Part shown: positions 47,188-50,756 of the stretch, piece by piece
Numbering within the stretch: the first letter of the stretch is position 1
Layout of the letters: each line of letters begins with the position of its first letter
DNA from: an uncultured Rhodospirillales bacterium
GTDB taxonomy: Bacteria; Pseudomonadota; Alphaproteobacteria; RF32; CAG-239
Direction: 5' to 3'
Assembly (NCBI GenBank): GCA_902778645.1
Contig: CACYYO010000001.1
Location: forward strand, 2,951-66,950
DNA: 64,000 nt
Translations under genes and position numbers: made by a program
Notes under the pieces: generated by a model
Told to the model about the DNA's origin: nothing
Database searches by the model: none
The model's input: only the letters and a program-made list of their open reading frames with translations

Positions 47188-47278
47188 CGCTAAAGTCCCG
47201 TCATACTTGTAACTTTTCTCCTAATGTAGCTGGTTGTACATGTCGTCGAAAAGTTGCGGCGTAGCACGGGGCTTTACT
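47188..47278. repeat. long imperfect inverted repeat in the galU/ygjP convergent gap
   Basis: The left arm taaagtcccgtcatacttgtaacttttc (47191-47218) is set against the right arm gaaaagttgcggcgtagcacggggcttta (47248-47276). The outer blocks taaag/cccgt/aacttttc are complementary. The right arm covers the ygjP stop codon. Confidence 0.65.
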
Positions 47279-47984
47279 CAAATATATACAGTTCTTTGCC
47301 GTGTTGTTTGAGCCAAGTTTGCCCCTCTTCATAATTCGGGCAGAGAAAGGCAACGCATTGCCAAAAGTTGGCAGAGTGGTCTTGATGAGCTAGGTGACTG
47401 ACCTCGTGTGCAATAATGTAATCAATAACCTCTTTCGGGGCGAGGGCTAAGCGCCAGCTGTAATTGATGTTGTTAAGTGACGAACAACTTCCCCAGCGAG
47501 ATTTAGTGTCTTTGATGGTTACGTCGTGAACTTGGCAATTAATTTTAGCTGCCAATTTTTGTGACAGTTTGAGAAATTTTGTTTGAGCTTCTTTTTTGAT
47601 GAAATCTTTAACCCGTCGGTGTGTGAATTCGCTCCCGCCGGAAACATAGAGAATACCTTTTTCTATGCGCGCTCCCCAGCGTTTTTCCGGCGCATGCTGA
47701 ATTAGGATTTCTTTACCAAACAAGCAGATGTTTTGTCCTGAAGTAAAACGTTGTGTTTTAGGAAGATTACGCAAGCTCTCAATAATCCAGTCTTCATGCA
47801 CTTTTACGAAGCTAACGGCCTGTTTTTGGGTGCAACGAGGCGGAATAGAAAGAACGGGTTGGTGGTCTTTCGTATCTATTCTCAGGGTTAGGCGTTTGGC
47901 ACGAGGCGATTTGATAACCTTCAGCGGAAAATCAAATGCCTCCTGAATATTATAAATCTTGCCAGTCAACAATGTAATTTTCAT
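47274..47984 (-). CDS. YgjP-like (DUF45) metal-dependent hydrolase
   Basis: SPRAKRLTLRI near the N-terminus and the zincin motif IIAHEVSHLAHQDHSANFW. Confidence 0.8.
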   Translation of the reverse strand: MKITLLTGKIYNIQEAFDFPLKVIKSPRAKRLTLRIDTKDHQPVLSIPPRCTQKQAVSFVKVHEDWIIESLRNLPKTQRFTSGQNICLFGKEILIQHAPEKRWGARIEKGILYVSGGSEFTHRRVKDFIKKEAQTKFLKLSQKLAAKINCQVHDVTIKDTKSRWGSCSSLNNINYSWRLALAPKEVIDYIIAHEVSHLAHQDHSANFWQCVAFLCPNYEEGQTWLKQHGKELYIFE

Positions 47985-48450
47985 AATCTTCTATTCCTGT
48001 CTCGCATACTAAAGGTCGACCTTGCAGAGATTGTTTGGCTTGGTGGACACTTTCGGCAATCCCTGTTTTTAAGGGATGCCACTCCGGCAGATCGTATCCG
48101 TTATCCAGTAACCAGTAGGCACATGTTTTCGGAAGCCAACGCGGTTTTTCCCGAATAGCTTTGAGGTCAATATCTCGGCAATCCGGAACTTTTTCAAAAC
48201 GGTGCTCGTAAATTCGGCATAAACAATTATCGCAGTTTAAGAAACGGCAGTAAGTATTGGTGAATTTGATTTTTCCTTTTATCTCAAGTTTATTGAGACA
48301 ACATTTGCCGCAGCCGTCGCACAAAAGCTCCCACTCATGCTTGCTCATCTGCTCAAGTGTTTTATGTTTCCAAAATTCCGGCTCAAGGTTTTGCATATTG
48401 TCAAAACGGCTTTGCGGATTATAGTCTTTTTCCAGTTTATAATCTGTCAT
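47950..48450 (-). CDS. ycgN: UPF0260 (YcgN-like) cysteine-cluster protein, paralog 1
   Basis: FWKHKTLEQMSKHEWELLCDGCGKCCLNKLE, C.C..YE.RF..VPDC and WLPKTCAYWLL...DLPEWHPL all parallel E. coli YcgN. Confidence 0.8.
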   Translation of the reverse strand: MTDYKLEKDYNPQSRFDNMQNLEPEFWKHKTLEQMSKHEWELLCDGCGKCCLNKLEIKGKIKFTNTYCRFLNCDNCLCRIYEHRFEKVPDCRDIDLKAIREKPRWLPKTCAYWLLDNGYDLPEWHPLKTGIAESVHQAKQSLQGRPLVCETGIEDYENYIVDWQDL

Positions 48451-48534
48451 TTTATTTTAGCGAATCGTTGTTGTGTTTTTCTGTTTTATGATTATAATTT
48501 GTAAATATCAAGGAATATTTAAGGAAAAAAAGAA

Positions 48535-48798
48535 ATGTTTGGCTGGTTAGCTGATTTGTTGGTTAAATCTGCAGTTGTGGGTTCGAGTTGTCCTTGTTGC
48601 AACGGGCAAAAAGAACAACTCAAAAAAATGCAAAAAGCTGTTTTGAACGGACAACTTGAAGAAGAGGAAGAATCGGCGTGTCATTGTAGCGATGGCTGTC
48701 ATTGTTCGGGGCACGGGTGTTGTCAGGAAGGGGAAAGTTGCTCCTGTACTTCTCAGAATCGTTCAGATATGAGCATGAGTTATCATTATCAGTTATAA
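48535..48798 (+). CDS. small Cys/His-rich (metallothionein-like) protein
   Basis: 87 codons with 11 Cys and 4 His (SSCPCC, ACHCSDGCHCSGHGCCQEGESCSC). An aagga SD-like sequence lies upstream. No family assigned. Confidence 0.45.
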   Translation: MFGWLADLLVKSAVVGSSCPCCNGQKEQLKKMQKAVLNGQLEEEEESACHCSDGCHCSGHGCCQEGESCSCTSQNRSDMSMSYHYQL

Positions 48799-49188
48799 AT
48801 CCGGCCAGTTGATAATATGGTCCTCGAGCTCATCTTCTTTGACTTTTGTCTCTGAAATACAGCGACCGGAAACAGCCTTTCTGGGCGGTCGAGGGCGATT
48901 TTCAACCAAAGCACGATAGGCGCAGGACGGGGGCATCCATTCAATTTTATCAACATTTTGAGGTGTTAGTTTCAGGCATGTCGGTACAAGCTGACAACGG
49001 TCTTGGTAATGGGTGCAACGGCAGGTTTCGGGGTCCATGTATTGACAGACAACATCTGTATAATAAATATCGTCAGTGTCTTCATCTTGCAGTTTGATGA
49101 GGCAACATTTGCCGCATTGGTTGCACACTGCCTCCCATTCTTCCGCTGTGTAGTCAGAGAGTCTCTTTTTCATCTTTTTTTCTTTCAA
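48793..49188 (-). CDS. UPF0260 (YcgN-like) cysteine-cluster protein, paralog 2
   Basis: YTAEEWEAVCNQCGKCCLIKLQDEDTDDIYYTDVVCQYMDPETCRCTHYQDR and WMPPSCAYRAL. Confidence 0.75.
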   Translation of the reverse strand: MKEKKMKKRLSDYTAEEWEAVCNQCGKCCLIKLQDEDTDDIYYTDVVCQYMDPETCRCTHYQDRCQLVPTCLKLTPQNVDKIEWMPPSCAYRALVENRPRPPRKAVSGRCISETKVKEDELEDHIINWPDL

Positions 49189-49283
49189 AAAGATTGCAAA
49201 CAGATGATGCCGTGAGCATGAGAAGGGAGAAAATGCTTAGGGCGCAAAAACTCACACACATCATTGTATAGCGAATCGCTTTT

Positions 49284-50756
49284 TTAGCCAATTTGTTCAG
49301 GAATATATTCATCTTTCGCTAAGTTTCCGAATTGCGCATAATCACCGTTCCAAAAGAGTTTGGCTGTTCCGGTCGGACCATGACGTTGTTTACCGATAAT
49401 GACTTCTGCAATATTGGCGGTTGCACGGCAACGAGCCTGCCATTCTTCGATACGTGATTGCAAGTGTTCAGGTGTTTCGTTTGCTTTTTGTTTGGGCTCT
49501 TCGTTTTGGATATAATAGTTTTCTCGATAGACAAACATCACAATATCTGCGTCTTGTTCGATAGAGCCTGACTCACGCAAGTCTGACATGACCGGGCGTT
49601 TATCATCACGTTGTTCAACACCACGATTTAATTGTGACAGGGCAATTACCGGAACATTGAGTTCTTTGGCGAGAATTTTCAAGCCACGTGAAATTTCTGA
49701 TAATTCTTGAACACGGTTGCCTTCGTTCTTTTTGCTTCCGGATCCCATAATCAGTTGAATATAATCGATAACGATTAATCCTAATCCTTTATTGCGTTGA
49801 AGACGGCGGGCACGGGAACGAATCGTGTTAATGGTCAGTCCCGGGGTGTCGTCAATATACAAGGGAATTTTTTCTAACTCATGTGCGGCGGTAATAATGC
49901 GGTTGAATTCTGCCGGTTCTAATTTACCGGTACGCATATCTTTGCCGTTGGTTTGGGTAATAGTTGCTAAAATACGGCTTGCCAGTTGGTCTGCGGACAT
50001 TTCCAGCGAGAAAAAGGCAACGCCTTTGTTTTGCGGGTTTAAATTATTATCGTGTGACATATAGTCGGCAACATTGTAGGCAATATTGGTGGCAAGTGCG
50101 GTTTTTCCCATAGCCGGACGACCGGCAATAATAATCAGGTCTGAATTGTTCAGCCCGCCAATCTTGTTATCTAAATCGTCCAGTGCTGTCGGAAGACCGG
50201 AAATTTTACCGTCTTTTTGATAGGCGGCCTCAATGTATTTGACGGAGGAAGTCAATGCTTCTGCAAAGTTCACAAATCCGCCGCGGGAATCGCCTTGATT
50301 CGCAAGGTCATAAAGTTTTTTCTCGGCGCTTTCAATTTGTAGAGTTGCATCATTATCGATATCTTCTTTGATTGCATCATTAACAATTTCATAGCCGGTG
50401 TTGATGAGTTCACGGCGTAAAAATTTGTCGTAGATAAACTGTGCGTAGTATTCAACATTGGTTAACGGGGAAGACGAATCGGCAAGTTTGAGTAAATAAG
50501 GAAAACCGCCAACTTCCTGCAAAGTTCCTTCTTGTTCGAAGTAGTTTTTGAGGGTAATGACATCAGCAACGTGGCCTCGTTGTAAAAGTTTGCTGATAAC
50601 CTCAAAGATTTTGACATGAATTTTATCTGCAAAGTGCTGCGGTTTAAGAAATTCAGAAACTTTTTCGTATGCTTTGTTGTTGGCGAGCAACGCACCAATG
50701 AGAGCTTGCTCGGCTTCAAGATTTTGCGGTAAAACGGCGGGATCAATTTTTTCCAT
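49284..50756 (-). CDS. dnaB: replicative DNA helicase DnaB
   Basis: LPQNLEAEQALIGALL, GRPAMGKTALATNIA (Walker A), FSLEMS and IDYIQLI. Confidence 0.97.
   Translation of the reverse strand: MEKIDPAVLPQNLEAEQALIGALLANNKAYEKVSEFLKPQHFADKIHVKIFEVISKLLQRGHVADVITLKNYFEQEGTLQEVGGFPYLLKLADSSSPLTNVEYYAQFIYDKFLRRELINTGYEIVNDAIKEDIDNDATLQIESAEKKLYDLANQGDSRGGFVNFAEALTSSVKYIEAAYQKDGKISGLPTALDDLDNKIGGLNNSDLIIIAGRPAMGKTALATNIAYNVADYMSHDNNLNPQNKGVAFFSLEMSADQLASRILATITQTNGKDMRTGKLEPAEFNRIITAAHELEKIPLYIDDTPGLTINTIRSRARRLQRNKGLGLIVIDYIQLIMGSGSKKNEGNRVQELSEISRGLKILAKELNVPVIALSQLNRGVEQRDDKRPVMSDLRESGSIEQDADIVMFVYRENYYIQNEEPKQKANETPEHLQSRIEEWQARCRATANIAEVIIGKQRHGPTGTAKLFWNGDYAQFGNLAKDEYIPEQIG

Follow-up and report, generated by a model that had tools for sequence, protein, structure and literature searches.

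A small gene with a conserved CxCC head and a variable Cys-rich tail lies head-to-head with ycgN in uncultured gut Alphaproteobacteria

INTRODUCTION

To our knowledge, few bacterial metallothionein-like proteins are known, and these are not homologous to one another. Metal-rich disordered tails are also found in metallochaperones and storage proteins, as in the His-rich tails of HypB, SlyD, and UreE and in Hpn of Helicobacter. The bacterial metallothioneins SmtA and BmtA (PF02069) and the mycobacterial MymT have been reviewed (PMC7387436). Here, we analyze a small Cys-rich gene located in the gap between two genes of the YcgN (UPF0260) Cys cluster family, in a 64,000-nucleotide (nt) stretch of DNA from an uncultured Rhodospirillales bacterium (assembly GCA_902778645.1, contig CACYYO010000001.1). 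This whole stretch is called the window, and all coordinates are positions in it. The gene is the open reading frame (ORF) at 48535-48798 on the plus strand, referred to as the small gene, which encodes 87 amino acids (aa) with 11 Cys and 4 His.

The YcgN/UPF0260 family is conserved across Proteobacteria, and full-text literature searches found no functional study of the proteobacterial YcgN/UPF0260/YkgJ/CxxCxxCC family; the matches to the name ycgN concerned an unrelated Bacillus gene and were discarded. A small protein encoded head-to-head with ycgN, and only where both paralogs exist, offers a testable handle on YcgN. Among abundant, uncultured gut bacteria, the small gene also provides a clear case of taxonomic restriction.

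RESULTS AND DISCUSSION

A restricted gene family under purifying selection

The conservation and substitution patterns indicate that ORF 48535-48798 is a genuine gene under purifying selection. A profile built from nine relatives retrieved at least 129 protein clusters at an E value of ≤0.01, and every alignment begins at residue 1. All the clusters bearing a name are called "hypothetical protein," nearly all of them assigned to "Alphaproteobacteria bacterium" metagenome-assembled genomes (MAGs), and an exhaustive phmmer search of 1.84 billion protein representatives gave only 33 matches. The gene is present in 51 of the 282 species genomes of the window's family, distributed over 7 of its 23 genera, and was not found in relatives outside that family. 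In the carriers, it is single copy, and its frame is open in 51/51 despite large length differences. The 43 GTDB species loci examined were recovered in MAGs from the gut of humans, deer, and chickens and from the rumen. Among close strains, the ratio of nonsynonymous to synonymous substitution rates (dN/dS) is 0.02 to 0.05 in the first part of the protein, hereafter the head (codons 1 to 40), and 0.10 to 0.43 in the tail that follows; across the family, the ratio for the head is about 0.14, with saturated dS. A Shine-Dalgarno (SD) sequence, mostly TAAGGAG, is found 7 to 8 nt 5' of the ATG in 41 of 42 distinct upstream regions. Cys represents 1.0% of the residues in the window's long ORFs, and the probability of at least 11 Cys in 87 residues is about 1e-9, so that the Cys density of the small protein greatly exceeds that expected by chance. 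The small gene belongs to an undescribed protein family restricted to a lineage of uncultured gut Alphaproteobacteria.

A fixed head and a variable tail

The head has a 38-aa consensus, MF(G/K)WLA(D/K)xL(V/I)K-TPVQGSG-CxCC-EGKKxxLxKMQxAI, in which M1, W4, L5, C19, L29, and M32 are invariant and F2, C21, C22, and Q33 nearly so (63 sequences). In the window, it occupies codons 1 to 39 (48535-48651, plus strand), with a helix (MFGWLADLLVK), a loop, C19-x-C21-C22, and a second helix with L29 and M32. An AlphaFold2 (AF2) model computed on the 63-sequence alignment places helices at residues 3 to 11 and 20 to 37 and leaves the rest as coil, with a predicted local distance difference test (pLDDT) score of 57. 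The model suggests that the head consists of an amphipathic helix, a loop, and the CxCC motif at the N terminus of a second amphipathic helix. A lipoprotein or signal peptide was rejected, as no lipobox ([LVI][ASTVI][GAS]C) occurs in the alignment; the residues preceding C19 are G-S-S, G-S-G, or Q-S-S, and D7 and K11 interrupt the N-terminal segment, which lacks a basic n-region.

The rest of the gene, including the stop codon (48652-48798, plus strand), is variable. In the window protein, SSCPCC in the head is followed by an acidic EEEEE linker, by a Cys/His block from C49 to C71 (ACHCSDGCHCSGHGCCQEGESCSC; 48679-48747, plus strand), and by the C terminus SDMSMSYHYQL, which is conserved in the genus. 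This tail has 8 Cys in 47 residues (17%; P of about 2e-8), and the whole protein is 12.6% Cys (11/87). An 18-nt internal repeat (TGTCATTGT; 48679-48687 and 48697-48705) in the block encodes CHCxxG twice. Across the family, tails follow an acidic linker, measure 7 to 117 aa, and contain 0 to 16 Cys; those of 128 clusters average 8.6% Cys, 4% His, 19% Asp plus Glu, and 11% Gly. The tails hold 159 CxC, 81 CC, and 35 CHC motifs, and CGC is also frequent. The tail Cys positions do not align between family members. Even strains with 85 to 97% identity differ by Cys gains and losses, and in five or more members of full length the tail is free of Cys. A strand-like motif rich in Tyr, FSSGSYSA, is found in many of the tails as well; its equivalent in the window's genus is the C-terminal M(S/T)xSYHYxL. 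Since the tail Cys are so variable, any metallothionein-like capacity appears to be a lineage-variable add-on, and it is the head that defines the family. Moreover, the members without tail Cys imply that the head cannot draw its ligands from the tail. A fixed head joined to a ligand tail that expands and contracts would show a lineage-by-lineage tuning of metal-buffering capacity.

Comparison with known metal-binding families

The original prediction, made from the sequence alone, described the ORF as metallothionein-like and as distinct from SmtA and BmtA. The second statement agrees with our profile searches, in which the window protein had no Pfam or NCBIfam match at an E value of ≤0.1. 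Ten other family members had none at an E value of ≤1, except for a sub-threshold match to PF00131 (E value of 0.029), and searches against PADLOC, PHROGs, and PDB sequences gave no match. Assignment to the SmtA/BmtA metallothioneins (PF02069) was consequently rejected, as there is neither a profile match nor a fixed Cys9His2 ligand set in a zinc-finger-like fold and the tail is coil in the AF2 model. The first statement is correct for the Cys/His stretch, which is of the soft-metal-binding kind, but not for the family, whose defining part is the CxCC head and whose tails range down to no Cys at all. In the same sense, the operational metallothionein traits (low mass, high Cys content, and CxC, CC, or CxxC motifs) are seen in the window protein but not in every family member.

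The resemblance to metallothioneins lies in a small, putatively cytosolic protein with CxC, CC, and CHC motifs packed into its tail and His residues scattered among them, a composition expected for metal-thiolate clusters. The differences are the lack of any sequence match, the unconserved Cys positions with some Cys-free tails, and a conserved helical head with aromatic residues, which metallothioneins lack. At the level of the locus, the small gene is divergent from a neighbor, as smtA is, but this neighbor encodes a YcgN Cys cluster protein and not a metal-sensing repressor.

The family shares with HypB, SlyD, UreE, and Hpn the combination of a conserved module and a ligand-rich, lineage-variable tail that grows by short repeats, as in the 18-nt repeat of the window gene and in the repeated GGECHC units of another member (P0119). 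In contrast to those proteins, its ligands are mainly Cys instead of His, and its conserved module measures only 38 aa and has no known activity. The one nonfamily match in the phmmer search was a protein made of seven DUF4379 (PF14311) treble-clef zinc finger repeats, whose second zinc knuckle (GSGCPCCSGQKV) matches head residues 11 to 29. These residues (..GSSCPCCNGQKE..) resemble the second knuckle, G-[ST]-G-C-P-x-C-x-G-x-K, at the start of a helix, but they are not accompanied by the first CPxCG knuckle or by the beta-hairpin, so the likeness is one of motif and not of domain membership. A complete DUF4379 domain was rejected because there is no Pfam match and only the second-knuckle half is similar.

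The ycgN paralogs and the position of the small gene

Both flanking genes match the NCBIfam "YcgN family cysteine cluster protein" models. The first, ycgN1 (47950-48450, minus strand; 166 aa), matches NF003501 (E value of 4e-49) with 166.3 bits against a curated cutoff of 167; the second, ycgN2 (48793-49188, minus strand), matches NF003507 (E value of 8e-42) with 142.5 bits against 170, as well as PF03692 (E value of 1e-10). The maximal ycgN2 ORF encodes 131 aa from a TTG, and homologues and gene callers favor the ATG at 49173, which would give 126 aa. With scores just below the curated cutoffs, both read as clear YcgN homologues. As in the described YcgN/UPF0260 proteins (PRK05170 models; PF03692, CxxCxxCC), they align over their full length and keep the CxxCGKCC motif and the further invariant Cys. 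In an alignment of 50 sequences of both paralogs, C22, C25, C28, C29, C48, C58, C71, and C89 are invariant and C56 is conserved in at least 90%. They differ from that family in forming an old tandem pair, with 30% identity to each other, and in the loss from ycgN2, in the window's genus, of the conserved 15-aa LPxWHPLxTG segment. The full-length form, with the DLPxWHPL..SVH motif, is ycgN1, and genera with a single ycgN keep the ycgN1 type (L043 to L045). A larger alphaproteobacterium has only one YcgN, with which the paralogs share 43% and 46% identity, values that do not decide which of them is canonical. The AF2 model of YcgN2 has a pLDDT of 90, and Foldseek found no fold match for it in the PDB (best E value of 2.8); no sequence relative of YcgN1 was found in the PDB.

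The small gene is divergent from a ycgN gene in 43/43 species loci, with 65 to 85 nt between the start codons. In 39 of them, ygjP, ycgN1, ycgN2, and dnaB run in one direction, and the small gene stands between ycgN2 and dnaB in the opposite one, divergent from ycgN2 and without any overlap with ycgN. Only the other four loci have the order of the window, in which the small gene separates ycgN1 from ycgN2. The ancestral site is between ycgN2 and dnaB, and the position between the paralogs is a derived one, specific to the window's genus. In the local gene tree, the window-type order appears on both sides of the basal split of the genus; thus, the relocation predates the genus. A tandem duplication of ycgN2 together with the small gene, followed by reciprocal loss, would yield this order. 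The relocation left the small gene head-to-head with a ycgN gene, as before.

Each of the 51 carrier genomes has at least two ycgN genes: the small gene is present in 51 of the 217 genomes with the pair versus 0 of the 65 with one or no ycgN (Fisher test, 5e-7, which ignores phylogeny). Throughout these 51 species, which span 7 genera, it always has a ycgN gene beside it. The ycgN pair itself occurs in 217/282 genomes of the window's family and also in two other families. Only 51 of these 217 genomes have the small gene; the ycgN duplication is old and independent of it. Consequently, the proposal of a module made of duplicated YcgN and an intercalated peptide is retained for the tight linkage to the ycgN pair but not for the duplication, nor for the position between the paralogs, as 39 of the 43 loci have the gene elsewhere. 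The refuting outcome named in the original prediction, absence of the ORF from close relatives with both ycgN genes, was seen in part. The ORF is a real conserved gene in the family, but 6 of 13 congeners keep both ycgN genes, with ycgN2 and ycgN1 abutting and no trace of the small ORF. It is, therefore, an accessory gene and not an obligatory part of a YcgN module.

A proposed role in metal binding

On the sequence evidence, we give a probability of roughly 0.5 to the reading that the small protein binds metal through thiolates in the cytosol, by means of a half-site head and an expandable tail, and possibly serves YcgN. In the head, the C19/C22 pair and C21 would form half of a metal site, comparable to the helix-capping half of a treble-clef zinc finger, and the other half would be provided in trans by another molecule of the small protein or by a partner; taking C19/C22 as half of a tetrathiolate site is a motif-level suggestion only. 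The tail may act as an expandable thiolate and imidazole "sponge" for soft metals, such as Zn(II), Cu(I), Cd(II), or Ni(II). In the most speculative step, the partner would be the divergently encoded YcgN pair, with the small protein supplying or buffering the metal or Fe-S cofactor of YcgN. The constant head-to-head layout and the dependence on the paralog pair suggest a tie to YcgN, although both are confounded by shared ancestry. A more specific version, which we regard as unlikely, assigns to the CxCC head the part of a docking "handle." Together with the YcgN paralogs, and mainly with the product of ycgN2, from which the small gene is ancestrally divergent, the head would complete a metal or Fe-S site common to both proteins, and the evolvable Cys/His tail would feed or buffer this site. 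If true, it would be a first hint at what the widespread UPF0260/YcgN family does, and the metal-handling proteins of bacteria would gain a new modular class, encoded by an orphan gene that arose where dnaB meets ycgN in a lineage of gut Alphaproteobacteria.

Metal-related genes elsewhere in these genomes provide a weak context for this proposal. A stand-alone CopZ-like HMA ORF of about 75 to 100 aa is found in 99 of the 282 family genomes, namely, in 42/51 genomes with the small gene versus 57/231 of the others; HMA is also present in 13 of 14 control genomes. Since the family and genus patterns each reduce to a few events on the local gene tree, this co-occurrence is a lead only.

Several observations weigh against a metal-binding protein in the service of YcgN. 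Within the window's genus, the HMA pattern is the reverse of the family-wide association, and in the window's genome (G000, 91% complete), no HMA-domain (CopZ/CopA-type) or CsoR-family gene was found. As the tail Cys are unconserved and some members have none, metal storage cannot be the core function of the family. Loss of the small gene, with both ycgN genes kept, occurred at least once in the genus after the relocation and many times in the family; thus, YcgN does not need it. Moreover, the dnaB-ycgN-ygjP region is syntenic across the family, so that the constant adjacency could reflect inheritance and not function. Inspection of the intergenic region between the divergent genes for a conserved palindromic operator revealed the SD and -10-like elements but no such palindrome. 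Finally, the pLDDT of 57 is of low confidence for the small-protein model.

Alternative explanations

The alternative that survives best, possible although in our judgment doubtful, is that the gene is real but its neighborhood is meaningless, with an orphan and largely disordered protein whose gene landed or arose at the dnaB-ycgN junction, simply stayed there, and has a role, related to metals or not, that does not involve YcgN. The family-wide synteny of the dnaB-ycgN2-ycgN1-ygjP string agrees with this explanation, as does the absence of the small gene from 166 of the 217 genomes with the ycgN pair. In sister genera, furthermore, dnaB and ycgN2 abut without a spacer (L031, L033, and L035), which suggests that the small gene arrived by insertion. 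Against this explanation, the small gene is never away from ycgN, never with a single ycgN, and again head-to-head after the relocation, even if phylogeny confounds all three observations.

A thiol or redox role is rather improbable. The CxCC head would here carry an Fe-S cluster or a redox-switch disulfide, as a scaffold, carrier, or sensor, and the tail would be a sacrificial thiol buffer. That the three head Cys are nearly invariant and the tail Cys are not is consistent with such a division, and the neighboring YcgN family is described as "zinc- or iron-chelating" (PF03692). However, His, Asp, Glu, and Gly are enriched beside Cys, the repeated CHC and CGC units resemble sets of metal ligands, and no Fe-S assembly genes are present at the small-gene loci examined.

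It is even less probable that the small protein is the precursor of a ribosomally synthesized and posttranslationally modified peptide (RiPP), with the head as leader, the Cys-rich tail as core, YcgN as modifying protein, and the YgjP-like zincin as the protease that cleaves it. A conserved leader with a variable core is the layout of a precursor, and a putative metallopeptidase and Cys cluster proteins do adjoin the gene. Nevertheless, ycgN and ygjP are housekeeping genes that are retained where the small gene is absent, in 231 family genomes and also in other Alphaproteobacteria, and the neighbors dnaB, ycgN, ygjP, the Bax1-I gene, and rpmH are all present in genomes that lack it. No transporter, immunity gene, or recognized maturase was found nearby. 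The small gene is divergent and outside the operon, a cleavage motif of the double-glycine or a similar type is absent, and the tails reach 117 aa with conserved motifs of their own at the far C terminus.

A noncoding origin, either a chance ORF or a cis-antisense RNA that interferes with ycgN2 or ycgN1 transcription, would fit the convergent 3' end, which overlaps ycgN2 without a terminator in between and would send the transcript antisense into it, but is effectively refuted by the selection pattern: synonymous changes far exceed nonsynonymous ones in frame, the start codon and SD are conserved in 41/42 loci, the frame is open in every carrier genome, and the ancestral arrangement has no overlap with ycgN.

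Layout of the locus and further observations

The gap between ycgN1 and ycgN2 measures 342 nt, one less than the 343 bp originally given; the other coordinates and features reported in the original prediction were confirmed. These include the two minus-strand YcgN paralogs with CxxCGKCC and further Cys, supported here by the NCBIfam matches and the alignment, and, read directly from the sequence, the 87-codon plus-strand ORF with its 11 Cys, 4 His, SSCPCC, EEEEE, upstream AAGGA, and 6-nt overlap with ycgN2, as well as the 35-nt overlap of ygjP with ycgN1. Upstream of the small gene, the 84-nt divergent intergenic region (48451-48534) contains a TTGTGT hexamer (48471-48476) and, after a 16-nt spacer, a TATAAT hexamer (48493-48498), a pair that may function as a promoter; a promoter-like hexamer pair was found in 15 of 42 distinct homologous upstream regions. 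The SD of the small gene, AAGGA (48521-48525, plus strand), is 9 nt 5' of its ATG and makes a strong ribosome-binding site. At the other end, the palindromic TTATAA (48793-48798) encodes "Leu-stop" on both strands and forms the 3' ends of both the small gene and ycgN2, and the same 6-nt overlap occurs in four congeners (L002, L003, L005, and L006). Since this overlap leaves no room for a terminator, the transcripts of the small gene and of ycgN2 must each run antisense into the other gene. Read-through from ycgN2 toward ycgN1 would likewise cross the small gene in antisense.

Downstream of ycgN1, and last in the ycgN-ygjP string, is a gene for a YgjP-like zincin (HExxH) hydrolase (47274-47984, minus strand; PF01863, E value of 6e-52), whose overlap with ycgN1 is kept in all related loci. 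The overlap and the pairing suggest, at the sequence level, a conserved YcgN-YgjP functional pair. The pairing of ycgN with ygjP is also present in the larger alphaproteobacterium (L040), and ycgN2 and ycgN1 overlap or abut in most genera. Upstream of ycgN2 lies dnaB (49284-50756, minus strand).

In one congener (L004/L053; G008 contig 48, about 13.5 to 16.4 kb), about 3 kb is inserted between the small gene and ycgN2, and the small gene stays head-to-head with ycgN1. The insert contains a 374-aa ORF, which by eye looks phosphofructokinase-like. In an ENA contig, a 118-aa protein (P0024) joins the head and linker of the small protein to the C-terminal end of DnaB; an artifact of assembly or gene calling at the convergent junction is the likeliest cause.

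A hydrophobic mini-ORF of 36 to 52 aa (..MMCVSFCALSIFSLLMLTASS..; 49154-49312, minus strand) begins at the end of dnaB and overlaps the start of ycgN2. Throughout the genus, the peptide is conserved whether or not the Cys-rich gene is present, and it is probably a real small membrane protein. In other genera, a related peptide, M.K....NTLLIF..M.., starts just after dnaB and is antisense to the 3' end of the Cys-rich gene, a convergent overlap that loosely recalls the layouts of type I toxin-antitoxin systems.

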